Origin: Candidatus Omnitrophota bacterium
GTDB lineage: Bacteria; Omnitrophota; Gorgyraeia; Zapsychrales; Fredricksoniimonadaceae
Direction: 5' to 3'
NCBI GenBank assembly: GCA_015233675.1
Contig: JADFXH010000002.1
Span: forward strand, 206,794-270,793
DNA length: 64,000 nt
Notes under the pieces: generated by a model
Told to the model about the DNA's origin: nothing
The model's database searches: none
Seen by the model: only the letters and a program-made list of their open reading frames with translations
In this document: one piece after another, positions 2,453 to 48,531 of the stretch
Numbering within the stretch: the stretch's first letter is position 1
How the letters are laid out: each line of letters starts with the position of its first letter
Translations under genes and position numbers: made by a program

Positions 2453-5400
2453 ATGAGCCCCTGTGCCCCGAATATCAATAAAATTCTAATCAAACAATTA
2501 CGGCAAGCTGTTTCTATATTCATTTTGACAGCTTTTATTGCCACTTCGGTCAAAAGTCCAGCCTTTGCCCAATCGGCTGGAGGGGACATGATGCCGCGTC
2601 TGCCGGTGCCTGGGGTTATGGTGCATTTAAGCCCTGAATTTACCCCTGCTTATTTGCAAGGCATAACCATTCATCCGGACAATGCCCTGCAGTTTGATTT
2701 TCTGATCCATAAAGGCGACCAAAATTTAGAAGGTGATCAAAAACAAGAAGAATATAAGAAATTGGTTAAATATTTCCTGGCCTCTTTGACTATTCCCGAT
2801 GAGGACCAGTGGGTCAACCTGTCTCCCTATGAAAAAGATCGTATTATTAAAGATAGTTTCGGAAAAACTGAAATGGGCCGTGACCTTTTGGCTGAAGATT
2901 ATCTGCTCAAACAGATCACCTCAAGCCTGATTTATCCTGAAGATGGCCTGGGGAAGAAATTTTGGGGCAAGATCTATGAGCGCGCCTGGAAAGAATATCA
3001 TACGACGCAGATTCCGGTAAATACTTTTAATAAAGTATGGATTGTGCCCAATCAGGCTTTTGTTTATGAAAGCGGCAACACCGCCTATATTTTTAAAAGC
3101 CATTTAAAAGTGATGTTAGAAGAAGATTATCTGTCATTGTTTAAACACCAAGGTCAATCGGGGCCCACGCCAACCAGGGGACATGTCCCCCAAGGGGACG
3201 TGTCCCCAAGCAGGCTGCCAACCAATAAAAGGCTGCAACTGAAAGCACCCCAGGAGCAACCCGTACACGCCTTAGCCAGTCAGATCATCAAAGAAATCAT
3301 TCTTCCCGAATTAGAAAAGGAAGTCAATGAGGGCAAGAATTTCGCGAACTTGCGGCAAATTTACAGCGGCATGATACTTGCGACCTGGTATAAAAAAGCT
3401 TTAAAGGAATCCTTATTAGGAAAGGTTTATGCAGATAAAGCGAGGCTCAAAGGAGTTGACCAGGACCCTAAAACCAATGAAGAGATTTATCAGCGATATT
3501 TGAAGGCATTTCAAAAGGGGGTGTTTAATTACATTAAGGAAGATGTGGACAAATACACTAATGAAGCTATCCCCAGAAAATACTTTTCTGGTGGTTTCAG
3601 CCGAATCGACAGGGCTATGGTAGGAAGAAGCGACGGCGATGTTGCGATTATCCGCCCGGGCGGTCCCTTCCCCGTAGGGGTAGATATCTCGGGCCTTGCT
3701 TCTGATAAAACTATAGAGGAAGCTACAGTTGCATTTAATCCAGAGGGGGAGGAGGTTAAGTATAATCCTGCTTCGGGGGGAGGCATGGCCATGGCGACAA
3801 AGCAACCATGGACCGTTGATAATTTAACAGAGTTTTTTAATGGAAAAAGAATTTTGATTATATCTGATAATAAATTTTTAGTTAGATTGGTCCAAGTGAA
3901 TAAAATATTGAAAGGAGTTGATGATATCCAAATAGCCGAAGAATTCTTAAAGGAAGGGGATATGAAATTTGACGCGGTTATTTATGATATTAACATGTTT
4001 ACGAATCCAAAGAATTTAGCCGGTTTAATAAATACTCGTTTAGATTTATCTAAAATGCCGATGGTGTTTTTGATGGGCAATTCTGAACAGTATGATAAAT
4101 TTTTAGCTGTGTTTAAAAATGAAGCTTTCTTGGGGCTCTTAATGAAGCCTTTTGACCCGCTTACTATGTTTTCTACGTTAGCTGATAAATTGGAGGCGCA
4201 GCAAATCTCATCAAATAAGGCAATGGCGGATTCTGACCAAGCCATGCGGTCTGGCAGGGAAGAAAGAATGGCACGACGGATCATGCGGGAGCAAATAACC
4301 GAAGGCATGGAAATTCTTCAAAAGCCATTCTTAACAAAAAGGGACTTTAAGAATTTATGGGATATATTAAATTACATAATGCCTTATCATCCGGACCGTA
4401 TAATGAGAGTTCCTTTTCGAGAGTTTAGGGATGCTTATTTATGGGGATTGTCCAGATACGCAAAGGACGCTATGAGCGCGGGTAATGATGAGCCGGCGAA
4501 AGATGCAATTATTGAAATGATAAAGTATCCATATGGCAAAACAAGTGAAACAAAGAAAATTTTGGGATCTCTAATAAATTCTTTTTTAAGACTAAAATCT
4601 GTCGCTGTTGGGGATGCCATCGAGAATGCGGGTGAGCTAAAGGATTTTGGGCCGGTAAGGGATGAATTAAATAGGATTCACAATGATCTTAATGGCCTTA
4701 CAAAACACAGGATTTTTGTAAATATCCAAAATGCGTATTTAAGAAGATTAGATGATATTGCAGTTGAAGCCATGAAAAATCGTGATTTTGAGAAAGCAGA
4801 AAAGGTGTTAAATGAAATGCTTTCTTATCCAAAAGGCAAGATAAGAAATAGCGTTTTTTCAGAACTAAGAAATTCCTATATAGACGGATTATTACAGGAA
4901 GCGGAGGAGATCCTCATTAAAGTTGAAAAGATCATCAGGAATAATGGGGCGATCCAAAAAGGGGATCTTGATCTGATCGTTGCGATAATAGAGTCGATTA
5001 ACCAGACGTATAAATATGGCAATGCTAAAAGAACGAGGGAAGCTGTGACGTATCTCAATGATTATTATTTTGATTTAACAGGGTCATATGCCGTTGGCCA
5101 AAAGAGGGGACAATATAGGGGAAAGATACCCCTGACGATTGCTCAGTTAAGAGAATTTTATGAAGCGATGAGAAAATATGTTCTTGATGCCGTAGATCAG
5201 TTTTTAGGGCCCGAGTATGATGAGGAGGACGGGGTCTATGATGAAGTTTATGAAAGGGATAGCAGGGCCAGATATCAAGACGAGCGATTAACAGAAAACA
5301 GGGTTAGAGAATTTTCTCAAGCCATTGCAAAAGAGGATATTTCAGAGAAAGATTTTATTAATACCGGATTGATGGCAGATGACTTAGAGGACAAAATTAA

Positions 5401-11858: not shown

Positions 11859-11921
11859 TAAATAAACTCCTGCTTTTGCGGGAATGACAATTTATTTTAT
11901 GAATTGAAACATGGGGTATAT

Positions 11922-23734: not shown

Positions 23735-23790
23735 AATAATTAGTGTCAATAATTAGTGTCTGACACTATTTATCATGACACTATTTATCA
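23735..23790. repeat. Composite repeat module 1: 2x AATAATTAGTGTC followed by 2x TGACACTATTTATCA
   Basis: Read directly. The central dyad GTGTC-T-GACAC is formed where the oppositely oriented units meet. Confidence 0.85.
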
Positions 23791-24054: not shown

Positions 24055-24092
24055 AATTAGTGTCTGACACTATTTATGTGACACTATTTATG
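24055..24092. repeat. Composite repeat module 2: AATTAGTGTC followed by 2x TGACACTATTTATG
   Basis: Read directly. Same architecture as modules 1 and 3. Confidence 0.85.
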
Positions 24093-24136: not shown

Positions 24137-24619
24137 TTGAAAATGGAAGCTGTTTTAAATTATTATCACTTCATTTTGGCACGGATGGATCCCGTTAATT
24201 TAATAATAGGTTTTATAGTTGTTTTTTTTGTGGTATTTCTTATTTTTAGAATTATCAAAGAAAAAGAATTAGGAAAATATTTATTACAATATGGAGAAGA
24301 GTTAGAGGCAGAAGTGAAATTAATAGATTGCGGCTACCGCAGATTATATTATCGTGTAGAAGTTAGTTTTCAGATAAACGGTCAAACTATAGTAAAAAGA
24401 ATGTCTGTTTATAGTTTTCTTAATTGGTTTCAAGGACAAGCAATAGGAGCATCCAGGAAATTTCCTGTGCTAGTAGATCCTACTAATCCAAATAGGTTTC
24501 TATTTAACATACATAAGTTTGAATTAAAAGAAACATCTGACGATTCCATCCAAAACTTTTTAGAAAGAGAGAAGGCGGAAAATCCAGATATTGAAGATGA
24601 CAAGGATTTAAATAAATAG
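24137..24619 (+). CDS. Membrane-anchored DUF3592-like protein
   Basis: One N-terminal TM (LIIGFIVVFFVVFLIF), then a beta-rich domain ending PVLVDPTNPNRFLF, typical of DUF3592. Start is TTG 24137 or ATG 24143. Confidence 0.5.
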   Translation: MKMEAVLNYYHFILARMDPVNLIIGFIVVFFVVFLIFRIIKEKELGKYLLQYGEELEAEVKLIDCGYRRLYYRVEVSFQINGQTIVKRMSVYSFLNWFQGQAIGASRKFPVLVDPTNPNRFLFNIHKFELKETSDDSIQNFLEREKAENPDIEDDKDLNK

Positions 24620-24638: not shown

Positions 24639-24693
24639 AATAATTAGTGTCTGACACTACTTATGTGACACTACTTATGTGACACTATTTATG
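24639..24693. repeat. Composite repeat module 3: AATAATTAGTGTC followed by 3x TGACACTAYTTATG
   Basis: Read directly. Ends 12 nt before the hairpin element at 24706. Confidence 0.85.
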
Positions 24694-24705
24694 TGGAATG
24701 TTTGC

Positions 24706-37292: not shown

Positions 37293-38234
37293 ATGAAAAT
37301 CTTTAATAAATTTATATATTTCATATTTTTTTCAGCATTGATCCATTCTGTATGGGCAAACCAAAATATTCCGGATAAGGAGATGTCCCGTCCTTCAATG
37401 GCGGTTATTAAGAAAGCCGTGGATTTGGTTGCGGGCGAATATCAGAAAAGTGTTTTATCGGCACTTAGAAAATCCGGCAGAAATGCCCGGGAACTTATTT
37501 ATGCTCTTGAAAATGTGAGTCTGCGTCAGAGGGAAGGGATGGCATTCTTGATTGCCAATATGCCTGGACGTGATTTGGTGGCTTTAAAGGGCAATTTTTT
37601 AGTTGAGAATGAAATTCTGGCTTATCAAGCAATGAGTGAGGTCCCATGGGGGAAGGACATTCCCCCGGCAATATTTTTTAATGATGTTTTGCCTTATGCT
37701 TCTTTTAATGAGTACAGGGATAATTGGCGAGCGGATTTTTACAAACGTTTTATCAAAATTGCCAAGAACAGTAAAACCATAGATCAGGCAGTGATAGCCT
37801 TAAATAAATATGCTTTTGATGCCCTGCATGTTTCCTATGACGCGGTTAAGCGACCCAAACCCGATCAAAGCCCTAATGAGTCCATCCGGGCCCGTTATGC
37901 TTCCTGCACCGGGCTTTCGATCCTTTTGACAGACGTTTTGCGTTCCGTTGGTATTCCGGCTCGAATAGCGGCCATTGCCATGTGGCCTGATGGAAGCGGT
38001 AACCATACCTGGGTGGAGATTTGGGACGGGCATTGGCGTTATATAGAAGCCGACCAACCATCCCCACTTGACCATACATGGTTTACCATGAAGGCCTCAC
38101 GTACAGATTCCGGGCATCCTATTTATGCGACAAGTTTTAAAAGAACCCGGTTAAAATTTCCTATGCGTTGGGCGCTAAACCTTAAATTTGTTTCTGCCAT
38201 TGATGTGACTGAGAATTATAGGAATCTAAAATAA
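37293..38234 (+). CDS. Secreted transglutaminase-like (papain-fold) protein
   Basis: Signal peptide. Catalytic Cys context RYASCTGLSILLTDVLRSVGIPARI, His context GNHTWVEIW, downstream D. Confidence 0.75.
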   Translation: MKIFNKFIYFIFFSALIHSVWANQNIPDKEMSRPSMAVIKKAVDLVAGEYQKSVLSALRKSGRNARELIYALENVSLRQREGMAFLIANMPGRDLVALKGNFLVENEILAYQAMSEVPWGKDIPPAIFFNDVLPYASFNEYRDNWRADFYKRFIKIAKNSKTIDQAVIALNKYAFDALHVSYDAVKRPKPDQSPNESIRARYASCTGLSILLTDVLRSVGIPARIAAIAMWPDGSGNHTWVEIWDGHWRYIEADQPSPLDHTWFTMKASRTDSGHPIYATSFKRTRLKFPMRWALNLKFVSAIDVTENYRNLK

Positions 38235-38301
38235 ATAGAAACGTCTACAGATTGTTTATTACTCCATGTCATCCCCGAATGCTATAATTGCGGATCGATG
38301 T

Positions 38302-38371
38302 TTCTGGATTCCCGCTTTCGCGGGAATGACAAAATCTATTATGTCATCCCCGCGAAAGCGGGGATCCAGAA
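38302..38371. repeat. 29-bp inverted repeat built from two arms of the GTCATTCCCGCGAAAGCGGGAATCC-type palindromic element
   Basis: TTCTGGATTCCCGCTTTCGCGGGAATGAC (38302-38330), a 12-nt spacer, then GTCATCCCCGCGAAAGCGGGGATCCAGAA (38343-38371). A further GTCATCCCCG terminus lies at 38268. Confidence 0.8.
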
Positions 38372-38516
38372 TTACAATAATTTGTGAGCATGTGACTTAG
38401 TCTGTTCGGGTGAATGAATAGAGCAAATCACACACTTTATGGGCCTAGTGCCTTGGAAGACGGATAACATGGTTTTTTGTGCCTATGGTGATATACTAAA
38501 TAAGGGGATATATTAT

Positions 38517-39107
38517 ATGGACAGCCGAAAAGGGTTTACTTTAATAGAAATACTAGTGGTGATGATAATTATAGGGATTACGACTTCTTTTGCTTTGTAT
38601 AGTTGTAACTATCAGATAAACAAGGCAATAGCTAATGCTACCGGAAAGAATTTGTCAATGCTGGCACAGGCCCAGCAGATTTTTTATTTGAATCATGGGT
38701 ACTTTTGTAAAACGCAGGAAGGGGATGCCCATACGTTCCAAAATTCCACCCCTGCATTACCTAACTGCCAGTTGCTATATCCTGCCAGTACCTGTGGGGA
38801 TAATCTATTGACGCTCAATTGTAATCTGGGTTTGAATATTGTTGACACAAATTATACTTATAGGTGTTCATCAGATTATAGTAACTGCAAAGATCCACTA
38901 GTACAACACTTCGAGTGTGCGGCCATGAGTAATAATCAAAAAGAAGAGCTATACATTAAAAATTTTCCTGAAGCTTATCTTAATAATATTCCTAACCAAA
39001 TATTTTGCGACTACAGATCTAGCTGCAACAATGGAGCTCCCTGCGTAACTAGTGCCCAGTATTGCCCGGATACAAATGTATACCCATTGGGTACCGTGAT
39101 TCCTTAG
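38517..39107 (+). CDS. Type IV pilin-like protein, Cys-rich
   Basis: Prepilin leader and methylation motif MDSRKG-FTLIEILVVMIIIGI. 12 Cys in the globular part. RBS AAGGGGA upstream of ATG 38517. Confidence 0.85.
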   Translation: MDSRKGFTLIEILVVMIIIGITTSFALYSCNYQINKAIANATGKNLSMLAQAQQIFYLNHGYFCKTQEGDAHTFQNSTPALPNCQLLYPASTCGDNLLTLNCNLGLNIVDTNYTYRCSSDYSNCKDPLVQHFECAAMSNNQKEELYIKNFPEAYLNNIPNQIFCDYRSSCNNGAPCVTSAQYCPDTNVYPLGTVIP

Positions 39108-39297
39108 TTCCTCCCTTCAAGGCTTTATTATCAATTATCGACGGAAATCAAATATTATTCTATTTTTTTTGTCCTCCCGCCCTAACCGAGCTTATACTAT
39201 TGCAAATTTGATGCCTGACTGCCGCAGAGGGCGGCAGGCCGCCCCGCCAGGGGGCGGGAAAAAAGTACTTGTTTGGTGTTCTGAGAGAATCAACGAT

Positions 39298-39372
39298 GTC
39301 ATTCTGAGACCTCAGGGCGAAGGATCTTAAGACGCCTTAAGATTCCTCGTCGCTATCGCTCCTCAGAATGAC
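39298..39372. repeat. GTCATT...AATGAC palindromic element (full copy, GTCATTCTGAG subtype)
   Basis: GTCATTCTGAG...GGATCTTAAG-ACGC-CTTAAGATTCC...CTCAGAATGAC. Same length class (75 bp) and architecture as 19813-19888. Confidence 0.8.
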
Positions 39373-39423
39373 AAAGTTCTTTCAACTCGTTAAAGATTTA
39401 CGTTTTACTTTGTGATATTAAAT

Positions 39424-39452
39424 TTGACAAATAATCAATAATATGTTATGAT
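39424..39452 (+). promoter_or_regulatory. Sigma70-type promoter candidate for the T4SS operon
   Basis: TTGACA, a 17-nt spacer, then TATGAT. Bracketed by ATTTGAC (39422-39428) and GTCAAAT (39455-39461). Confidence 0.55.
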
Positions 39453-39480
39453 TCGTCAAATCTTCAATGATGTATCAAAA

Positions 39481-39630
39481 AGGGCGTTGGCCCGACCTAA
39501 TCAATGGAAAGGCTCATGGAATTTCAAGGAAGGGCGTTGGCCCGACCTAATCAATGGAAAGGCTCATGGAATTTCAAGGAAGGGCGTTGGCCCGACTTAA
39601 TCAATGGGAAAACTTAGTGGAATTATAGGG
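39481..39630. repeat. 3 x 50-bp head-to-tail tandem repeat in the T4SS operon leader
   Basis: AGGGCGTTGGCCCGACCTAATCAATGGAAAGGCTCATGGAATTTCAAGGA is identical at 39481-39530 and 39531-39580. The third copy (39581-39630) diverges after about 26 nt. Confidence 0.95.
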
Positions 39631-39644
39631 AAGGGGATGATGTT

Positions 39645-39959
39645 ATGAGAAATATGAAAATTTTTTTAGTTTTATCAGGGTTTATGATTTTTTTTGTTAG
39701 CAATGCATCCGCGACGACAAGTTCGCAAATTCTGGTGATGTCAAACCAATTATATCAAATCGCAAAAGATTTGACCACAGGGCTTTTCCCTACATCAGTC
39801 TTGCTCATTGCCATCGGCATGTGGGGATTTATTAACGCTTTCGGTAAAAGCATTGGCGATGGTATCCACCAACTAACAAATATCATTGCCGTAGGCGGAA
39901 TTGTATTTTTTGCTTCATCGTTGCTTGTCAACGCGGCTTTATTTTCAGCGCAAATGTAA
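39645..39959 (+). CDS. trbC: T4SS pilin, TrbC/VirB2-like
   Basis: 104 aa. Signal peptide (..FFVSNASA), then two hydrophobic helices. Sits immediately upstream of the VirB3/VirB4 homologues. Confidence 0.6.
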   Translation: MRNMKIFLVLSGFMIFFVSNASATTSSQILVMSNQLYQIAKDLTTGLFPTSVLLIAIGMWGFINAFGKSIGDGIHQLTNIIAVGGIVFFASSLLVNAALFSAQM

Positions 39960-39962
39960 AAT

Positions 39963-40280
39963 ATGATCAATCGTAAAAGAACCACACCTTTATTGCAAAG
40001 TTTGACCAAACCAATCCTGCTCTTAGGGGCAGAAAGAGAGAATATTATTCTTTTGGCCTGTCTTTCTTTAAGCCTTTGCACGGTTGGCAGGGATGTTTTG
40101 TCTCTAGTTTTGGCGTTATTAATATGGAGTATCGGGATAATCGCCAGCAGATTGACAGCCAAAGTTGACCCATGGGCCACAAAGGTATTCTTAAGGTCCC
40201 TTTTATACCGGAATTTTTATAGTGCTCGGGAAAGAATAAATACCCCCCAGTGTGTTTTAAGACGCAGCAGGAAAATTTAA
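39963..40280 (+). CDS. trbD: T4SS inner-membrane protein, TrbD/VirB3-like
   Basis: 105 aa. LLQSLTKPILLLGAERE followed by two TM. Position between the pilin and VirB4. Confidence 0.6.
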   Translation: MINRKRTTPLLQSLTKPILLLGAERENIILLACLSLSLCTVGRDVLSLVLALLIWSIGIIASRLTAKVDPWATKVFLRSLLYRNFYSARERINTPQCVLRRSRKI

Positions 40281-40281
40281 T

Positions 40282-42732
40282 ATGTTGCCTGTAAAGGAAT
40301 TCACAGAAGGTCCCGCGGGGTTTCCTTCATTGATCAATTATTTTGAATTTGTTGATGAAGGAGTCTTGTTTAACCGTGATGGAAGCCTCTTGGGCTGTTT
40401 TTATTTTTGCGGACCTGACATGGATTCTTCTTTAGGAGAAGAAGAGGATCAGATATCTTCTCAAATCCAGTCAATTTTTCAGAATTTTGGTAATGGCTGG
40501 TCCCTGCATGTGGATTTAATCAGGGTGCCCGCGATTGCGTATCCCCAAACGCATCATTTTAATAACCCGACCTCCATATTAATTGAAAAGCACCGGCGCG
40601 AGCGCTATGAAAAAGAAGGTGATCATTTTGAGAATATCTATGCTATCAGTCTTTGCTATCTTCCATCGGTTGTTGAAAATAAACTTATGAATAGTTTCTT
40701 CATCCAGAATGCCCAAAAAGATGAAGCTCCAAGCCTTGAGTTTATTATCGATGTTTTTAATCAAAAATTGAGCGAATTCCAGGGGAATATTTCAAATAAA
40801 ATACACATTATACGCATGAGCTCTGCTGAGATGATGACTTTTCTTAATCGATGTATCGCGGGTGTAAAGTCTGAAACTCCGCTCCCAAAGCCGCCTTGTT
40901 ACCTGAACCATTATTTGGGGGCGCATGAGTTTACCGGTGGGCATGAACCCATGGTTGATGATTATCATATCGGGGTCATCACACTGACTCAATTTCCCTT
41001 TGAAAGCTACTTCGGAATTCTAGATATTCTCTCAACACTTCAATTTGAATATAGATTCTCTTCAAGATTTCTTTTTTATGATCCCATTGATGCCCTTGGG
41101 GTCGTTGATGAATACCAGGGCAAATACTTAGGGATGAAATATTCCATAGGGCAAATGGTGATGGGCGCTTTTGGCAAAGATCCCCGCTTAAACCCTGATG
41201 CTGCAAATCGTTCGGTGTTAACGAAAATCGAGGAAACTAAAACAGCCCAGGAAGCTATTGAAATGGCCCAAGTGAATTATGGTTATGCGACCTTTGTGGT
41301 GGTGGTTCTTGACAGCAATAAAGCTGAATGTAAAAGGAAAATGGAATACATCAGGGACTTGTTAAATAACAACTGGTTCCCCTCTATTATAGAGAAGATG
41401 AATTCGATAGAGGCCTATCTTGGGAGTTTGCCGGGTGATACTTTGAAAAATATCCGGAAACCCTTCATTAATACCCGGAATCTGGCTGATATGCTTCCTT
41501 TGAGGGATGTTTGGGCAGGCGCGTTGCATAATCCCTGCCCCTATTATCTTAAGAATTCACCGCCTCTTTTTTATGCCGCAACAGATGGGACAACTCCTTT
41601 TAGATTTAATGTCCATGTGGGAGATGTCGGGCATAGCTTGATACTTGGGCCCACCGGAGCGGGTAAATCAGTCTTATTGTCCCACATTGCCAATTCCGCC
41701 TTGCGTTATGAAGGGGCACAAGTGTACATTTTCGACAAGGGCTATAGCCAATATGTCTTAACTCATGCGCTCAAAGGAGAGTTTTACGATATTTTGGGGG
41801 ATGATGACAATCTGGCGTTTTGCCCTTTAAGTAATTTGGATGATCTTGCCCAGCAAAAATGGGCTTGCGGCTGGGTTGAAAGGATTGTTTCTCTGCAAGG
41901 GGTTGTCATAAATCCGGCCATTCGTGCCGCTATTGAAGGGGCCATTCGTGATACCAGTAAATCCCTGTCAAAAACCATGTCGGATTTTTATTTAAACCTT
42001 CAACATGATGAAATCAAAGAAGCTCTAAAACCTTTTGTTCAGATCAAAGAGGGGTATATGTCTTCCCTATTAGATGCCAGGGAAGACGGGTTTAAAAAAG
42101 GCAGATTTCAAACTTTTGAAATTTCAAATTTGATGGGGCTGGACAACAGATTAAGCACTCCTGTTTTGCTTTATTTATTTCATAAGATCCAATGCTCCTT
42201 AGATGGGAGCCCGACCTTTATAATCATCGATGAAGGTTGGTTGATCATGCTGCACGAAACATTTATGACCTATTGGATAGAATTCTTGAGGACAATCAGA
42301 AAGAATAATGCCTGTGTGCTTTTAGCTACCCAGAGCCTTTCGGATATCGTCAATTCACCGTATGTTAATTTTATCAATGAAAGTTGTTTTACTAAAGTCT
42401 TTTTGCCTAACCCTGCGGCAAGAGAAGCGGATAATAAAATGTTTTACGAGGCTTTTGGGCTTAATGAACGGCAAATTGAGATCATCAGTGAAGCGATACG
42501 TAAAAAACACTATTACGTGACTGCCCGTGATGTGGGCAATCGTTTAATTGATTTGGGATTAAAAAATTTAGAACTTGTCTTTTATGGGGCTGGAACAACA
42601 CTACAGGAGAGACAAAAGGTTAAAGAATTCAGGAAAAATTATGGGGACGATTGGGTGGCCAAGTGGCTGGAAGATAAGGGACTGGCCAGCCATGCTCAAG
42701 AATGGATGGCGATCAAAGGAAGCCGGCCATGA
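40282..42732 (+). CDS. trbE: T4SS ATPase TrbE/VirB4
   Basis: 816 aa. Walker A ILGPTGAGKS, Walker B FIIIDEGW, LATQSLSD motif. Confidence 0.9.
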   Translation: MLPVKEFTEGPAGFPSLINYFEFVDEGVLFNRDGSLLGCFYFCGPDMDSSLGEEEDQISSQIQSIFQNFGNGWSLHVDLIRVPAIAYPQTHHFNNPTSILIEKHRRERYEKEGDHFENIYAISLCYLPSVVENKLMNSFFIQNAQKDEAPSLEFIIDVFNQKLSEFQGNISNKIHIIRMSSAEMMTFLNRCIAGVKSETPLPKPPCYLNHYLGAHEFTGGHEPMVDDYHIGVITLTQFPFESYFGILDILSTLQFEYRFSSRFLFYDPIDALGVVDEYQGKYLGMKYSIGQMVMGAFGKDPRLNPDAANRSVLTKIEETKTAQEAIEMAQVNYGYATFVVVVLDSNKAECKRKMEYIRDLLNNNWFPSIIEKMNSIEAYLGSLPGDTLKNIRKPFINTRNLADMLPLRDVWAGALHNPCPYYLKNSPPLFYAATDGTTPFRFNVHVGDVGHSLILGPTGAGKSVLLSHIANSALRYEGAQVYIFDKGYSQYVLTHALKGEFYDILGDDDNLAFCPLSNLDDLAQQKWACGWVERIVSLQGVVINPAIRAAIEGAIRDTSKSLSKTMSDFYLNLQHDEIKEALKPFVQIKEGYMSSLLDAREDGFKKGRFQTFEISNLMGLDNRLSTPVLLYLFHKIQCSLDGSPTFIIIDEGWLIMLHETFMTYWIEFLRTIRKNNACVLLATQSLSDIVNSPYVNFINESCFTKVFLPNPAAREADNKMFYEAFGLNERQIEIISEAIRKKHYYVTARDVGNRLIDLGLKNLELVFYGAGTTLQERQKVKEFRKNYGDDWVAKWLEDKGLASHAQEWMAIKGSRP

Positions 42733-43427
42733 GACTCCTTTTATGGATATTATTAATCATTGGAATTTTTACCCCCACCTCCCAAGCTCTAGACGTAGCA
42801 ACAGAACATACCCAGATTTTAAATAATATTGAACTTATCACAGAGAACTTACGCCAACTGCAAAGCTTATATAACCAGATAGAGATGATAAAAAATCAGG
42901 TGGAAGGCCTTAAGTCTGTTGCAACATATCACAACGGCTTTAGTGACACGGATTCGTTGAGAGACACATTAACTGATCTCATCAACGAGGGGATGTCTCT
43001 TTCTGATCAAACCCAAAGTGTATTAAACACTATGCAGCAGGAGTCAAAAAATTTGACGACTAACGGGACAATGGTTGATCAGGAAAATTCATTAGTCACA
43101 GGCACAATGAATATTGTTGAGAATGCCTTAAATAGAGCCAAAGAGCAAAGGCAATCATATCAGCAGGAAATGAATTCCGTCAACGTGTTAATGGCCAAAA
43201 ATAATCAATCTGCAGGGCAGACGCAGGCATTGCAAACTTTAAATGAGCTTACGGCGTTAACCATTCCGCAAATGCAATTAACGCGTGAATTATTAAGTGA
43301 ACAGATTGCGATACAAGCCGCGATGATTAACAAAGAAAATCAGGAAAAGCAGGACCTGACCAACAAGATGGATCAGATAATCCATCCTATTGATAATAAC
43401 AGCAGTAGTTTTGATTTAGGGAGTTAA
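42729..43427 (+). CDS. trbJ: T4SS TrbJ/VirB5-like secreted coiled-coil protein
   Basis: Signal peptide ending SQA-LDV. N-terminal VATEHTQILNNIELITENLRQLQSLYNQIEMIKNQ is typical of TrbJ. ATGA overlap with trbE. Confidence 0.55.
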   Translation: MRLLLWILLIIGIFTPTSQALDVATEHTQILNNIELITENLRQLQSLYNQIEMIKNQVEGLKSVATYHNGFSDTDSLRDTLTDLINEGMSLSDQTQSVLNTMQQESKNLTTNGTMVDQENSLVTGTMNIVENALNRAKEQRQSYQQEMNSVNVLMAKNNQSAGQTQALQTLNELTALTIPQMQLTRELLSEQIAIQAAMINKENQEKQDLTNKMDQIIHPIDNNSSSFDLGS

Positions 43428-44629
43428 TGGTGGATCCGGTTGCTGTTTCTATATTTAACCAACTGTTAGGCCAATATAATGGCAGTATTTCTGCTATACA
43501 ATCGGGAAGTATTGATATTGCCAAAGAATTGTTTAATGCTATTGCGCTAGTTTCAGTCGCTGTATTAGGCATCAATCGGTTATTGAGCAGGAATGTTGAC
43601 ATGGTTGAGTCAAACATAGAGTTAATAAGATTATTGATCTATCTTAACGTCTTCTATCTTTTTATAAGCAGGTATGACCAATTTTTGCCCTTGATCTTTA
43701 ATTCGTTTAAAGCGGCCGGTATTTATATGGGCGGCAAGGCTGGCGGCTATAGTTTGTCAACTAATCCCGGTAGTATTATAAACATCGGTGTAAGCATAGC
43801 TTCAAAGATACTCAATGCGGCTAAAAACCAGACTTCACTAGCCAATATTGGTTTAAGCCTGATTGCCGTAGTTGCCGCGTTGGTTGTTTTGTATTGTTTT
43901 GGAATAATAGCCATTGAACTTATTTTAATTGATATAGGCAGCCGGATTATTTTAGCAGGAGGGATTTTTCTATTAGCTTTCGCGGGTTCATCATGGACCA
44001 GGGAATACGCGGAACACTATGTGCATACCTTTTTTCACCTTGGCGTCAAAATGCTTTTTGTATATATTCTGGTTGGAATAGGAGCAGGGGTCAGCAGTCA
44101 TTGGACAAAAATCCTGGATAATATCCCTATAGGCCAAATCATAGAATACTATATCGCGGTCATCATGGCATCGCTTGTGTATTACAAAATTTGCCAAAAG
44201 CTGCCGGACCAAGCAGTGGTTTATTTTACCGGTAGGTTATCGATGAATTATGAAACGGCCTCTACTATAAATGCCGTTGTCAAAGATGTTGCCAAAATAG
44301 CTAAATCAGCAGTCGGCGGGGTGCCTGCAATAGTAGGCATGACTAAAGCTGTGGGCGCGGCAAGACAGGCAGTTAAAACATCACTGGAAAGTCAGGGGGA
44401 AAAAGATAATCCGTTAAATACAGGATTTGAAATCATCAAGACGCTTGGAGCGGCTAAGCAAGAAGTAAAACAAGAGGCATGGGACAGGAAAGTCAGCGAC
44501 ACCATGGGAGGGAAAATGGCAAAAGATATTTTGGACGGGATTCCAAAGCCTAAAAGAGAAACAAGAAAAAGTACTAAAAAAAACCCTGGCGGTAATTCTA
44601 ATAATGCCTCGACGGATTATGCGATATGA
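43427..44629 (+). CDS. trbL: T4SS TrbL/VirB6-like polytopic membrane protein
   Basis: About 6-7 TM with a hydrophilic K-rich C-terminal tail. Position after TrbJ, as in trb operons. Confidence 0.6.
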   Translation: MVDPVAVSIFNQLLGQYNGSISAIQSGSIDIAKELFNAIALVSVAVLGINRLLSRNVDMVESNIELIRLLIYLNVFYLFISRYDQFLPLIFNSFKAAGIYMGGKAGGYSLSTNPGSIINIGVSIASKILNAAKNQTSLANIGLSLIAVVAALVVLYCFGIIAIELILIDIGSRIILAGGIFLLAFAGSSWTREYAEHYVHTFFHLGVKMLFVYILVGIGAGVSSHWTKILDNIPIGQIIEYYIAVIMASLVYYKICQKLPDQAVVYFTGRLSMNYETASTINAVVKDVAKIAKSAVGGVPAIVGMTKAVGAARQAVKTSLESQGEKDNPLNTGFEIIKTLGAAKQEVKQEAWDRKVSDTMGGKMAKDILDGIPKPKRETRKSTKKNPGGNSNNASTDYAI

Positions 44630-45291
44630 ATTCAAAAAGCCCGGATCCTTACATTAAAGCCAGAAAAGAATATGATGAGATTACGCATAATATTAACGCA
44701 TCAAAACAAAATTGGCAGCGCCTTAGTTTTGTATTAGGGCTCGCCTTGATCATCAGCATCGCCAGTAATATTTTTACGATTAATAAAGCGCATGTTATTC
44801 CTTATATTGTTCAGGTTGACAATTTGGGAAGGGCACAGGCAACCATTGAAGCTAAAGAAATGCCGTTAAGTGATGAGAGGATAATTAAAGCTTTTGTGTA
44901 CCAATACATTGATATGGCCCGCTCTGTTTTATCGGACCCGGAAAGCTTGAGAAAAGATTTGGCCCAGGTTTATCAGGAGTCTATTAAATCCGTGCAAAGC
45001 AATTTTCTGGATGTTTATTACAAGGATAACAACCCCTTTGATTATGCGCAAAATAAGGGTACCCGTCATATCGAATTATTGGTTTTTTTAAAAGAAGCGG
45101 AAAATACTTATTCTGTGGAATGGCGCGAAATAGAGAGAAACTATGATAATCAGGTTTTGGGTGAGGCTCATTATAAAGCGTTGATTTCTGTCATTCAAAT
45201 TCCACATTCCAATGAGGACCAATTCAGAGAAAATCCGTTAAATCCATTTGGTTTGTATGTGACTTCATTATCATGGTCAAAATTAGCGTAA
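44626..45291 (+). CDS. trbF: T4SS TrbF/VirB8-like protein
   Basis: DPYIKARKEYDE..NWQRLSF + TM + VIPYIVQVDNLG ... ENPLNPFGLYVTSLSWS matches the remembered TrbF pattern. Confidence 0.75.
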   Translation: MNSKSPDPYIKARKEYDEITHNINASKQNWQRLSFVLGLALIISIASNIFTINKAHVIPYIVQVDNLGRAQATIEAKEMPLSDERIIKAFVYQYIDMARSVLSDPESLRKDLAQVYQESIKSVQSNFLDVYYKDNNPFDYAQNKGTRHIELLVFLKEAENTYSVEWREIERNYDNQVLGEAHYKALISVIQIPHSNEDQFRENPLNPFGLYVTSLSWSKLA

Positions 45292-45303
45292 TAGGAGACT
45301 AAC

Positions 45304-46299
45304 ATGAACAATAGAATTAATTTTTTTAAAGCGGAGTCATTGCGCGGAGTGCAGTTTTTAATAGTTCTCACAAGCATGGCATTAAGCGGTTGTGCCAGTG
45401 ATTCCGGTAAAATGGATATAAGAAGTGAGCAGCCTTTAATTCAAATACCGGTCAATGAGCCAGCGCCTCAAATAAAATCGGCGAGCAGCGATGACATAGG
45501 TTTTGAAGATATCAGCCTGTCTGCCAAGAAAAGATTGCAGGTGTTGACAAACAAGATGGAAATTGACAAAGAAACGGACAATTATGTTAACAACGGCCAG
45601 GCGGCCGTGATTACGAGGCCTGACGGGACGATATTGTTCCCTTATGGGCTGGCGCAGATTCATTTAACTGCCAAAAGAATGATGTATAGTAAAATAATTC
45701 TGCAAGAAGGCGAGAAAATAATGAGTGCCGCAGCCGGAGATACGACTCGGTGGAACATTTTGCCAAATTATATCGGGAACAGCGCAACATATACGCCAAT
45801 TATTTTAGTCAAGCCGTTTATGGGGGGCTTACAAACCAGTTTATCCATTATTACAGATAAGCGTGATTATGATATTACCGTCCAATCGGTGGATTCCGGC
45901 GATTATATGCCTCGAGCCGGTTTTTATTACCCTCAGGATAAAGCCGATGCCGTCAATGTCGGATTGCCGCCTGACAAAATTGAAAACAATGAAAGTAAAC
46001 AGCCAAAAATTAACATTGAAAACATTAAATACAATTACCGGATCAAAGGGGATCCATCGCTCAGCTGGTTTCCAACGAGGATTTTTGAAGATGGTAATAA
46101 AGTATTTATCAGGATGTCAGATCATGTGGACCGGTCTCAATTGCCGATTTTTATGATGATTGACCATAGTGGCCAGCCCGAAGTAGTTAATTACCGCTAT
46201 TTTAAACCGTATTTTGTCGTTGATACAATTTTCGACCGGGGAGTACTTATTTTAGGAACGGATAAATACAAACAGGTTGTTAAATTAATTCGAGTTTAA
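45304..46299 (+). CDS. trbG: T4SS TrbG/VirB9-like outer-membrane lipoprotein
   Basis: Lipobox MALSGCAS. C-terminal NYRIKGDPSLSWFPTRIFEDGNKVFIRM is typical of VirB9. Confidence 0.75.
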   Translation: MNNRINFFKAESLRGVQFLIVLTSMALSGCASDSGKMDIRSEQPLIQIPVNEPAPQIKSASSDDIGFEDISLSAKKRLQVLTNKMEIDKETDNYVNNGQAAVITRPDGTILFPYGLAQIHLTAKRMMYSKIILQEGEKIMSAAAGDTTRWNILPNYIGNSATYTPIILVKPFMGGLQTSLSIITDKRDYDITVQSVDSGDYMPRAGFYYPQDKADAVNVGLPPDKIENNESKQPKINIENIKYNYRIKGDPSLSWFPTRIFEDGNKVFIRMSDHVDRSQLPIFMMIDHSGQPEVVNYRYFKPYFVVDTIFDRGVLILGTDKYKQVVKLIRV

Positions 46300-46313
46300 A
46301 TAGTTTATTTATT

Positions 46314-47582
46314 ATGTTTAATCTAGAACCCCAGAAAATTGTACAAACTAATCGTCTGCCATTTTTAATAGGGCTCGCTGTCCTTGTGGCGGTGATGGGC
46401 GTGTTTATGTATAGGATTCAGATGAACCAGAAAGTGGCGATAGTGCAAAATAAACCCCGGCAGTCCATTGATATTTCTTCAAAGGCCCAGGAAGCAAGTT
46501 GGTTCAATGATGAAAAATTCAGAAACATAAAGATTATTCTTAAGGAGTCTTCCCTGCATAAGCCAACAGCACAGGAGATTGAGGCAAAGATTATTTCAAG
46601 CAGGGAGGTTGATTTAAAAAAACAGGAGATTGCAGATGAGTATGCGGCCAAACTGGAAATAAAAAAGATGGAGGATAAAAACAAAATTGAAGAAAAAAAG
46701 CTTGAGTTAGAAGCCATGAAGTCACCTTTGAGCATAGACATCCCATCCTTGCCGGGAACTAAAACAGTGGCTCAGGAGAAACAATCCGGCAAAGATAATT
46801 TAACAGGTAGTCTAAGTGAATTAATGAATATGGTTAAATCAGTTACAGGCGCCAAGATTCCTGCTCTCCCGGCGTTGGCAGGGGGCTTGGTTACAGGCAT
46901 AAACGATCAAGACGGGAAGCTGGCGTTCTTGAAAAAGGGTGAAGTGGATGATGATTATTTGGAACGTTCTAAAAAGAAACCCCGTTGCCCTTACGAAGTT
47001 AAGGCGGGCAGCTATATTCCCGCGGCCTTGATAACAGGGATCAATTCAGATTTGCCGGGGAGTGTGAATGCTCAAGTCACGGAGAATGTATATGATACAA
47101 CGACGGGCAATTATCTTTTAATCCCTCAGGGGGCCAAACTGGTCGGAGAATATAACAGTAATTTAACTTTTGGACAGAAGCGCGTACAGGTGGTATGGAA
47201 CAGAATCATATTTCCGGACGGCAAGAGTATTGATCTTGAAAAGATGCAAGGAGCGGACACAGCAGGCTATACGGGATTTCACGATAAGGTGGATAATCAC
47301 TATTTGAGGATTTATGGCAATGCGGCTTTGCTAAGCTTGATGGGGGCGGGATATGACATTTTAAATCGAAAGGCCGAGCAATCAACCGATCCCAGGGAGA
47401 CTGTCGCGGCAAGCGTCGGGCAAAAGTTATCGGATGTCAGCGGTCAGGCGCTCGAAAAGAATATGGATGTTCAGCCGACGCTAATCATTGATTCGGGGTA
47501 TAAATTCAAAATTATCGTTATGAAAGATATGGTTTTGGAAAATATTGAAGATGCTCAGGGAACACTCTCGTACACAAAATAA
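46314..47582 (+). CDS. trbI: T4SS TrbI/VirB10-like protein
   Basis: N-terminal TM. C-terminal GSYIPAALITGINSDLPGSVNAQV..LIPQGAKLVGEYNS..FGQKRVQVVWNRIIFPDG is the TrbI domain. Confidence 0.8.
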   Translation: MFNLEPQKIVQTNRLPFLIGLAVLVAVMGVFMYRIQMNQKVAIVQNKPRQSIDISSKAQEASWFNDEKFRNIKIILKESSLHKPTAQEIEAKIISSREVDLKKQEIADEYAAKLEIKKMEDKNKIEEKKLELEAMKSPLSIDIPSLPGTKTVAQEKQSGKDNLTGSLSELMNMVKSVTGAKIPALPALAGGLVTGINDQDGKLAFLKKGEVDDDYLERSKKKPRCPYEVKAGSYIPAALITGINSDLPGSVNAQVTENVYDTTTGNYLLIPQGAKLVGEYNSNLTFGQKRVQVVWNRIIFPDGKSIDLEKMQGADTAGYTGFHDKVDNHYLRIYGNAALLSLMGAGYDILNRKAEQSTDPRETVAASVGQKLSDVSGQALEKNMDVQPTLIIDSGYKFKIIVMKDMVLENIEDAQGTLSYTK

Positions 47583-48531
47583 ACTGAAACAAGATTTAGG
47601 AGAGCTTGTTTTATCAGCTCTTTTGGATGAAGAAATTTATGAGGTTTTACTTAATCCCGACGGTATTTTGTGGGTTGATGGTTATCGAGGCAAACGTGAA
47701 TATGGAGCGATGACTGCGTCGGCAGCCAAAAATCTGATCAATACGGTGGCCAGCGTTTCAGATGAAACAGTCACAAATAAGAATCCAAGTTTTGCGGGTG
47801 AGTTATGGGTTGAGATCAAAGAGGAACTTAGATTATTCCGGTTTCAGGCTTTTATCCCTCCGGTGGTGACGTATCCGGCTTTTGCTATCAGAAAACGTGC
47901 CATCCAAGTGATCCCTCTGCAAGATTACGTTAAAGATGAAATCATCACCCGAGATCAGGAAAGGATAATCGAAAAGTCAATTGAGCAAAGAATGTCCATT
48001 TTGGTTGTGGGGGGGACACAATCAGGTAAAACAACATTCTGTAACGCGATTTTAAATTGTATAGCCAAAACTCATCCGAATGACAGGGTGATCATTATTG
48101 AAGACACCCAGGAGCTTAAATGCGATGTTAAAGACTCGGTGATGATGCGCGCCTCGCCTTTCAGGAGCATCAATGATTTGATCTTTGATGCGATGCGCAT
48201 GAGGCCCGACAGGATCATTATCGGGGAGGTTCGCGGCAAAGAAGCCCATTCCATGATCAAGGCCTTCAATACCGGCCATCCCGGCGGGCTAAGCACCGTC
48301 CATGCAAACTCTGCCGCAAGCGGGCTTTTAAGACTGGAGCAATTGATTATGGAAGCAGGAGTGCCTCCCGTGCCTGAAGCCATTGCCGAAGCGGTCAACG
48401 TCCTTGTTTATATCCAAAAGACCAATAAGGGCAAAAAAGGCAGACAGGTGACTTCGATTGTAAAGCTGAATGGGTATGATAAAATAAAAGGATATCTGAC
48501 AGAAGAGTGGGGTAGATTGGTCATAAGATAA
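47551..48531 (+). CDS. trbB: T4SS ATPase TrbB/VirB11
   Basis: Walker A VGGTQSGKTT, RIIIGEVRG, HPGGLSTVHANSA. Overlaps the trbI end by about 32 nt. Confidence 0.85.
   Translation: MLREHSRTQNKLKQDLGELVLSALLDEEIYEVLLNPDGILWVDGYRGKREYGAMTASAAKNLINTVASVSDETVTNKNPSFAGELWVEIKEELRLFRFQAFIPPVVTYPAFAIRKRAIQVIPLQDYVKDEIITRDQERIIEKSIEQRMSILVVGGTQSGKTTFCNAILNCIAKTHPNDRVIIIEDTQELKCDVKDSVMMRASPFRSINDLIFDAMRMRPDRIIIGEVRGKEAHSMIKAFNTGHPGGLSTVHANSAASGLLRLEQLIMEAGVPPVPEAIAEAVNVLVYIQKTNKGKKGRQVTSIVKLNGYDKIKGYLTEEWGRLVIR

Follow-up and report, generated by a model that had tools for sequence, protein, structure and literature searches.

The leader of a type IV secretion system (T4SS) operon in a Candidatus Omnitrophota genome raises the question of why a run of 50-nt repeats should stand between a promoter and virB2, the first gene of the operon. 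The stretch analysed, here called the window, is 64 000 nt of contig JADFXH010000002.1 (positions 206 794 to 270 793), and the repeats occupy 39480-39630 of it. The first-pass annotation had treated them as a feature of the T4SS operon. Instead, the unit is a dispersed element and not a T4SS-specific control region: it recurs elsewhere, always in the same orientation and with AAGG at its junctions, it is present or absent at two otherwise orthologous sites, and its copy number differs between loci. The repeats are probably copies of a ~50-nt non-coding element of a narrow Omnitrophota clade, which targets and regenerates the Shine-Dalgarno sequence (SD) of the downstream gene and resembles the interspersed repetitive units found in mycobacteria (MIRUs). 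This dispersed, SD-inserted nature was missed in the earlier annotation.

The array was defined by Tandem Repeats Finder (period 50, 2.6 copies, 98% matches, score 249, at 39480-39607) and by a repeat search that placed copies at 39480, 39530 and 39580, the first two identical and the third 78% identical to them without gaps. A 27-nt core of the unit occurs three times in the window and in none of 100 shuffles. The units and the junction with virB2 are as follows.

39480-39529, + strand: unit 1, 50 nt, with the 5′ module AAGGGCGTTGGCCCGACCTAATCAAT and its hairpin GGGC-GTTG-GCCC (39482-39493), then a variable 3′ part (nhmmer, E = 1.9e-17)
39530-39579, + strand: unit 2, same sequence as unit 1 (Tandem Repeats Finder, repeat search, nhmmer)
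39580-39630, + strand: unit 3, 51 nt (one extra base), of a different subtype (repeat search, nhmmer, unit comparison)
39631-39647, + strand: rebuilt SD (AAGGGG), 8-nt spacer and virB2 ATG at 39645 (read from the sequence)

The earlier description of three 50-bp repeats, two of them identical, thus stands, but the third copy, thought to diverge into the ribosome-binding site (RBS), is a full unit of another subtype, and the RBS is the junction between that unit and the flanking DNA. In its 3′ part, unit 3 matches the units of a metagenome contig, L017, at 22/25 positions and window units 1 and 2 at only 17/25. The array is best described as two unit subtypes, since unit 3 is closest to the L017 units and not to units 1 and 2, together with what appears from the identity of units 1 and 2 to be one recent duplication. 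On the 3′ side of unit 3 the order is AAGG (39631-39634), GGATGATGTT and the ATG at 39645; the N-terminus of the encoded TrbC/VirB2 pilin, MRNMKIF, fits the MK.(I/L)KVF of its orthologues. A mini-open reading frame (mini-ORF), ATG ATG TTA TGA (MML-stop, 39637-39648), lies between the rebuilt SD and the start, its stop overlapping the virB2 ATG (ATGA), probably by chance. The units are neither a coding repeat nor a CRISPR array, as the first-pass annotation had concluded: the 50-aa ORF at 39448-39600 merely crosses them in shifting frames, and with units contiguous at a period of 50 there are no CRISPR-like spacers. SD statistics for the window as a whole are unreliable because the starts of longest ORFs are not true starts.

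Comparison of 16 unit types divides the unit into two parts. The 5′ 26 nt, or 5′ module, consist of AAGG, the hairpin GGGC-GTTG-GCCC and GACCTAATCAAT, and in most unit types vary by no more than one base; the only exception is a single unit of L020, which has a loop variant and a recurrent G-to-A change. The 3′ 24 nt retain only TGGAATTNTA and the terminal RGAAGG and are otherwise 54-88% alike between loci, whilst units within one array are usually near-identical. The ends are asymmetric, GCGTTGGCCC on the left and ...TANRGAAGG on the right, and no terminal inverted repeats link them. Two small reading patterns recur in the family: most of the units in the window, L016 and L018-L022 carry a three-codon mini-ORF, NTG GAA TTN TAR, just before the SD, and many contain TTG GCC CGA CCT AAT CAA followed by TAG, TGA or TGG-TAA. 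Two candidate identities for motifs in the unit were rejected: attC-like core sites fit in neither order nor sequence, and for CsrA-type GGA sites the first GGA is not conserved (variants ATAG, ATGA and ATGT).

What the T4SS leader looks like without the repeats can be seen in 12 orthologous T4SS loci, 11 from species-representative GTDB genomes and one, L023, from the closest relative found (VirB4 91% identical, with the same transglutaminase-like neighbour as in the window). The unit is absent from all 12, L023 included, and their leaders are short, with ~40-47 nt from the −10 element to the ATG where measured, compared with 192 nt in the window. The window leader matches those of the orthologues up to ...AAAAAGG and resumes the match at GGATGATGTTATG; the unit itself has no similarity to the native leaders. 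By this alignment the intervening 151 nt are a lineage-specific insertion, since all 12 orthologous loci have a short leader without the repeat.

39453-39483, + strand: native 5′ part of the leader, ending with the left half of the original SD (AAGG, 39480-39483); aligns with L014 and other orthologues up to ...AAAAAGG
39484-39634, + strand: inserted DNA, 151 nt counting the left AAGG as target; ends with AAGG (39631-39634), restoring the SD (filled-versus-empty comparison)

The filled site of the window reads CAAAAAGG, then GCG...GGGAAGG, then GGATGATGTTATG, whilst the empty sites, with ^ at the corresponding point, read AAAAAGG^AGAAAGATTATG in L014 and AAATAAGG^AGATAAAATCTATG in L023. The insertion thus lies exactly within the SD, as AAGG, insert...AAGG, GG, eight nucleotides and ATG.

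The unit is also found away from the T4SS. Its 23-nt core, GGGCGTTGGCCCGACYTAATCAA, was matched by none of 185 579 species genomes and by no viral contig, but by eight metagenome contigs. Seven independent full-unit loci have the unit immediately 5′ of an ATG, always co-oriented with the gene, and the genes concerned encode an aspartate aminotransferase-like enzyme, a CheY-like receiver, an SPFH protein, a DUF1328-like small membrane protein, a lipoprotein, a glyoxalase-like protein and VirB2. The unit starts with AAGGGCG, and AAGG is present at both the left and the right junction in every locus. In the metagenome loci an AG comes after the right-end AAGG, 6-9 nt short of the ATG; the window has GG in its place. 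Six loci have a co-oriented upstream ORF ending nearby, with a gap of −2 to 12 nt between its stop and the unit, so that the element makes up the whole intercistronic spacer. Units are 49-51 nt long, in one copy in five contigs, three in L017 and L019 and six in L020, and all copies are direct, none inverted. A search with nhmmer and a fuzzy regular expression over ~0.3 Mb of Omnitrophota DNA gave no more full copies and one short, divergent member (L016, 9042-9064), in which the 5′ module alone is followed by GGAG and an ATG and the hairpin is kept by a compensatory change from GGGC/GCCC to GGGT/ACCC. With this member counted, the known sample comes to about eight independent loci. In the L017 contig (Ga0137420_1344497) the locus is present as two copies in opposite orientation (~317-796 reversed, and 4594-5073), with indels here and there; this is a palindromic, noisy assembly, and its unit sequences need care.

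The last observation bears on the most mundane explanation, that the native virB2 leader was duplicated locally in tandem or that the array is an artefact of assembly. In its favour are the identity of units 1 and 2, the miscounts of tandem copies that short-read assemblers can make, and the noisy assembly of one carrier contig itself. Nevertheless, the unit is unlike the native leaders of the orthologues, it is found in eight independent metagenome contigs from several samples, and unit 3 belongs to another subtype than units 1 and 2, so that we regard this explanation as scarcely credible.

The same comparisons decide against a device specific to the T4SS, whether phased regulator sites, a site for titrating a T4SS regulator, a centromere- or oriT-like site or a switch for phase variation by copy number, all of which the first-pass annotation had put forward. 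Such a role would suit the position of the units, after the promoter and ahead of the operon's first gene, and two identical units could permit slippage or unequal exchange; copy number does differ between loci (1, 3 or 6 units, and 3 versus 1 at one orthologous site). However, the T4SS loci of all 12 relatives do without the unit, the unit stands, mostly as a single copy, before unrelated chromosomal genes, and Pfam scans of the window found no relaxase, coupling-protein, partition or replication gene. Variation in unit number was correctly anticipated, but phase-variable expression is unsupported, because unit number leaves the −35/−10 spacing, the SD-ATG spacing and the reading frame unchanged. 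We consider a T4SS-specific device very improbable.

A second site is filled in some lineages and empty in others. Between a pyrophosphatase gene and a response-regulator gene, L019 has three units and L022 has one, whilst in L025, L026, L027, L028 and L032 the two genes are adjacent and the site is empty (in L025, GATGATTAAAGG^AGACGAAAAATG). The pyrophosphatases of these five empty relatives are 83-92% identical in protein sequence to that of L019. Filled and empty lineages stand at much the same distance (80-83% nucleotide identity), and therefore either the unit was gained repeatedly at the same SD or it was lost cleanly. Orthologues of the carrier loci, sought in the window for a third empty-site comparison, were not found there.

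These observations can be brought together in a simple scheme. A non-autonomous element would integrate, in one orientation, into the SD core AAGG^AG and bring a new AAGG at its 3′ end, so that the downstream gene would keep an SD at the usual distance from its start. Because the SD is kept at its normal distance, insertion would be nearly harmless, even in very short intercistronic spacers. Each insertion would recreate the target at the border of the element, and head-to-tail arrays could grow both by re-insertion, as the two unit subtypes in the window suggest, and by local duplication or unequal recombination, as the identity of units 1 and 2 suggests. In the window, a three-unit array would have been inserted into the virB2 SD, downstream of the conserved promoter, giving a transcribed leader of ~185 nt. 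We infer the act of transposition, as well as transcription of this leader from about 39459-39460. The asymmetric ends and the 5′ hairpin module suggest a hairpin- or site-specific recombinase as the candidate mobilising enzyme, and not a DDE transposase. For T4SS expression, a small or modest effect is predicted, from three small 5′ hairpins and two decoy SDs.

The promoter from which this leader would be transcribed is overlapped by an inverted repeat.

39420-39462, + strand: T4SS promoter block, with −35 TTGACA (39424-39429), extended −10 TG (39444-39445) and −10 TATGAT (39447-39452) (promoter scan and alignment)
39422-39461, no strand assigned: inverted repeat around the promoter, arms 39422-39435 and 39448-39461, 86% complementary

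The consensus promoter of the first-pass annotation was confirmed: with a 17-nt spacer and 11 of 12 consensus positions, it is the top promoter-like site in 38200-40400. A 12-sequence alignment of the window and 11 orthologous loci has TTGACA invariant and TGTTAT invariant or nearly so, with the spacer conserved too, and the block is also present in the closest relative, L023. Indeed the block AAATTTGACAAATAATCAATATTATGTTATGATTCATCAAA is conserved, spacer included, in all 12 orthologous T4SS loci, whilst the surrounding intergenic DNA cannot be aligned. On this conservation, it is taken to be an old extended −10 sigma-70 promoter, with transcription predicted to start near 39459-39460. A comparison with homologous leaders, proposed in the earlier annotation, thus finds the promoter block conserved and the repeats in none of the 12. 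The virB promoter block of Omnitrophota is a usable landmark, and its conserved spacer and initial transcribed region hint at an operator. The inverted repeat is real, and longer than the arms first noticed: ATTTGACAAATAAT (39422-39435) pairs with ATGATTCGTCAAAT (39448-39461), 14 nt on each side. It is strong only in the window and in L014, which alone of the orthologues keeps GTCAAA, and the right arm is degenerate in most orthologues; its 10/11 core was equalled or bettered in 8 of 200 shuffles. The inverted repeat is not unusual for such A+T-rich DNA, although an operator overlapping the promoter is possible.

Immediately 5′ of the T4SS promoter, 39215-39383 contains two G+C-rich hairpins, CTGCCGC-AGAGG-GCGGCAG and CCGCCCC-GCCA-GGGGGCGG followed by A6, and then a long imperfect palindrome, TGTCATTCTGAG...CTCAGAATGACA, with inner arms CGAAGGATCTTAAG and CTTAAGATTCCTCG. 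A similar palindrome, GTCATCCTGAG...CTCAGAATGAC, lies 5′ of the T4SS promoter in L014 (~1480-1560); the two may belong to another repeat family or act as terminator or insulator.

Whether the unit itself could be a portable promoter cassette, supplying transcription as well as an SD to the gene it precedes, was considered with sigma-54 in mind, because TTGGCCCGACCTAATCA resembles TTGGCACG-N4-TTGCW. By inspection the −24 half fits at 8/9 positions, but the −12 element lacks its near-invariant GC (AATCA), and the window shows no enrichment of canonical sigma-54 sites (8 found against 9.2 expected). Several carriers follow functionally unrelated upstream genes with almost no spacer, a setting in which a promoter of their own would be plausible; on the + strand, however, no sigma-70-like site was called inside the units, and in the window a conserved sigma-70 promoter already lies upstream. 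On the opposite strand, the conserved ATTNTA reads TANAAT, a −10-like sequence, and there is a minus-strand promoter call at 39651-39622, but the antisense TANAAT lacks a conserved −35 element, the best candidate in arrays being TTGATT, 22 nt away. Taken together, these points make a promoter cassette highly unlikely.

Control at the RNA level requires closer attention. The earlier proposal of a ~185-nt repetitive 5′ untranslated region holds as far as the units forming most of the leader, given the promoter conserved in 12 loci, but its suggestion of RNA-level control did not gain support from folding, which it had named as a check. The leader folds no better than its shuffles (z = +0.27), and RNA and DNA folds of units, arrays and leader show nothing beyond the 4-bp hairpin, with z-scores close to 0. 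RNAalifold on 14 units gave four pairs without double changes, amounting to just one 4-bp hairpin at the 5′ end only. In an Rfam search of 38200-40000, no match fell on the + strand of 39480-39644 at E values up to 10, and the only overlapping match, on the minus strand (E = 2), is at chance level.

These results bear on the main alternative, in which the unit is a cis-regulatory leader module selected by the host. Its 5′ part (the hairpin and GACCUAAUCAAU) would be the binding site of a trans-acting protein or small RNA, or else a 5′ stabiliser or processing site. The carrier genes, the T4SS operon among them, would form a post-transcriptional regulon in which tandem copies tune the dose, and mobility would possibly be secondary. 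Neisseria REP2 repeats, which lie upstream of 14 co-regulated genes, provide a precedent (PMC3184786). The 5′ 26 nt are essentially invariant whilst the 3′ part falls to 54-88% identity, the compensatory change preserves the hairpin in the short L016 member, which is made of 5′ module and SD only, and in every case the element occupies the transcribed strand, just ahead of the SD. Against this, presence and absence vary among close relatives at both sites, with all 12 orthologous T4SS loci on the empty side, and the downstream genes have unrelated functions. The unit has neither a significant fold nor an Rfam family, covariation is limited to one pair, and the window contains no sequence elsewhere that is complementary to the 5′ module. 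Conservation of the module is, moreover, inflated by the exact-match search. We think a host module unlikely, but keep it in consideration because the 5′ module is so conserved.

Several points weigh against the reading as an SD-inserting element. Pfam scans found no transposase or recombinase gene in the window, no longer, autonomous element with the same 5′ module and no cognate insertion sequence with the same ends turned up in ~0.3 Mb of Omnitrophota sequence, and the unit has no terminal inverted repeats that would point to a mobilising mechanism. The sample is small, at about eight independent loci, and every full-unit member was retrieved by an exact 23-mer, so that both the apparent conservation of the 5′ module and the diversity of the family are biased. 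The 4-nt junction repeat fits target-site duplication and microhomology of target or element alike. Selection alone could leave the unit next to SDs and in the orientation of the gene, because insertions that destroyed the SD would be eliminated, and strong conservation of the 5′ module is equally expected of a binding site used by the host. Finally, the copy number in the window is that of the assembly.

Amongst known systems, the SD-inserting element is most closely matched by MIRUs, as these are summarised in two later papers (PMC3184786; PMC12548453, both citing Supply et al. 1997): dispersed units of 40-100 bp, transcribed within operons, with tetranucleotide direct repeats at their flanks and with empty and filled sites. 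According to the same summaries, MIRUs enter at gene starts and affect expression only minimally (PMC3184786; PMC12548453). Within what those summaries cover, the likeness extends to unit size (49-51 nt here), dispersal (~8 loci here), position between co-oriented genes in the direction of transcription, variable tandem copy number (between loci and strains in MIRUs; 1, 3 or 6 units here, and 3 versus 1 at one orthologous site), tetranucleotide junction repeats (AAGG here), empty sites (12 T4SS relatives and five at the pyrophosphatase site), a G+C-rich internal inverted repeat and insertion at gene starts that spares downstream expression. As the summaries describe it, however, expression downstream of a MIRU is kept by an internal ORF with a stop codon overlapping the start of the next gene (−4 coupling), whereas the Omnitrophota element splits and regenerates the SD. 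Coupling of the MIRU kind is inconsistent in the new family: the mini-ORFs (TTG GCC CGA CCT AAT CAA and a stop, or NTG GAA TTN TAR) are not chained to the downstream ATG, and only L016 has a TGA/ATG overlap. The element also comes from a different phylum and has the target AAGG^AG, and it was likened to MIRUs by features, not by sequence. It is accordingly classed as working like a MIRU and not placed in that family.

Other families share some of these features. Neisseria REP2 and similar Borrelia inverted-repeat sequences sit upstream of genes (PMC3184786); like the Omnitrophota unit, they are dispersed, lack terminal inverted repeats, lie immediately upstream of ORFs, supply the RBS and have internal stem-loops near the 5′ end (PMC3184786). 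REP2 differs in being longer, in carrying a promoter and ATG and in defining a co-regulated gene set; it is not reported in PMC3184786 as variable-number tandem arrays within an SD, and the Omnitrophota element has no detectable promoter. Tandem direct repeats in the 5′ leaders of unrelated genes are also known from the Beggiatoaceae, where intergenic TAACTGA arrays occur in many such leaders and a post-transcriptional network has been proposed (PMC4679880). Those arrays consist of 7-nt units in many copies, with neither SD regeneration nor evidence of insertion at a fixed site (PMC4679880).

Small mobile elements offer a further comparison. Classical miniature inverted-repeat transposable elements (Correia, RUP, Chunjie) are likewise small, non-coding and dispersed, with short direct repeats at their junctions, and can sit in operons. 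The Omnitrophota element differs from them in having no terminal inverted repeats or stable fold, and in its strict orientation, strict SD target and head-to-tail arrays. With repetitive extragenic palindromic (REP)/REPIN-RAYT and IS200/IS605-derived elements it shares a short G+C-rich hairpin with a fixed tetranucleotide immediately on its 5′ side, asymmetric ends, strand-specific placement and the lack of terminal inverted repeats. In IS608-type elements the target tetranucleotide adjoins the left end. In the Omnitrophota unit, AAGG always precedes the hairpin, and the same four nucleotides also end the unit, which is compatible with target-site duplication. REPs, in contrast, are mostly downstream of genes and often in inverted pairs, and IS200/IS605 elements have hairpins at both ends, whereas this element has a single 4-bp hairpin and all its copies lie 5′ of start codons in one orientation. 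Pfam scans found no Y1 or RAYT gene among the window ORFs.

A literature search found no paper describing the element. It is tempting, if still tentative, to regard it as a previously undescribed kind of mini-element: one that would use the SD core AAGG^AG as a strand-specific integration site and rebuild it at its own 3′ end, enter spacers as short as 15 nt without silencing the next gene, re-insert at its own border to build arrays and be mobilised by a putative enzyme that recognises its invariant 26-nt hairpin module.

The operon behind the array was identified as follows.

39645-48531, + strand: virB2, B3, B4, B5-like, B6, B8, B9, B10 and B11 (Pfam matches TrbC, VirB3, CagE_TrbE_VirB, TrbL, VirB8, CagX, TrbI and T2SSE)

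On its 5′ side lie a transglutaminase-like gene and a prepilin-like gene, and the remaining window genes are housekeeping genes. A look-up for an exact match to the VirB2 of the window returned nothing. VirB4 homologues with 70-91% identity come from metagenomes and metagenome-assembled genomes labelled Omnitrophota or Omnitrophica. The T4SS locus is chromosomal and is kept across many Omnitrophota metagenome lineages (VirB4 70-91% identity). Together with the lack of VirD4 coupling-protein, relaxase and replication genes in Pfam scans of the 64-kb window, this suggests a non-conjugative role for the T4SS, such as effector delivery or DNA uptake or release. Several of the records L004, L005, L007, L008 and L011-L014, which have an Omnitrophota-type T4SS with the conserved promoter, are titled ‘uncultured Planctomycetales’ or ‘Acidobacteriaceae’, which is likely a matter of mislabelling or binning; their VirB4 matches are mostly 71-88% identical, with a partial match of 55% in L014.

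Other repeats in the window are of different kinds. Between the transglutaminase-like and prepilin-like genes, 38302-38371 (70 nt) is a nearly perfect palindrome with arms of 34 nt and CCCGC...GCGGG hairpins nested in it. It yields a spurious ORF (38266-38400, ‘...IPAFAGMT...’) and spurious miRNA-type Rfam matches. A related half-copy (TTTGCGGGAATGACA) is at 11875-11889, and the two look like a REP-like family of dispersed palindromes. Three clusters (23735-23790, 24055-24092 and 24641-24695) each have a palindrome, TAGTGTC with TGACACTA, followed by two or three direct copies of TGACACTAYTTATG. They flank two small ORFs, one of which (24137-24619) has no Pfam match, and resemble sites of the operator or iteron type, or the edges of a small cassette.

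If the repeats are indeed copies of an SD-inserting element, they tell little about regulation of the T4SS, and annotators should take care, as long repetitive leaders in these genomes can be insertions and not regulatory regions. They would represent a small-repeat family of an uncultured phylum and a new solution to the problem of insertion into tightly packed operons, in which the SD is split and restored. The family would be a natural example of RBS-targeted integration specificity, and its arrays would provide variable-number markers for Omnitrophota populations.

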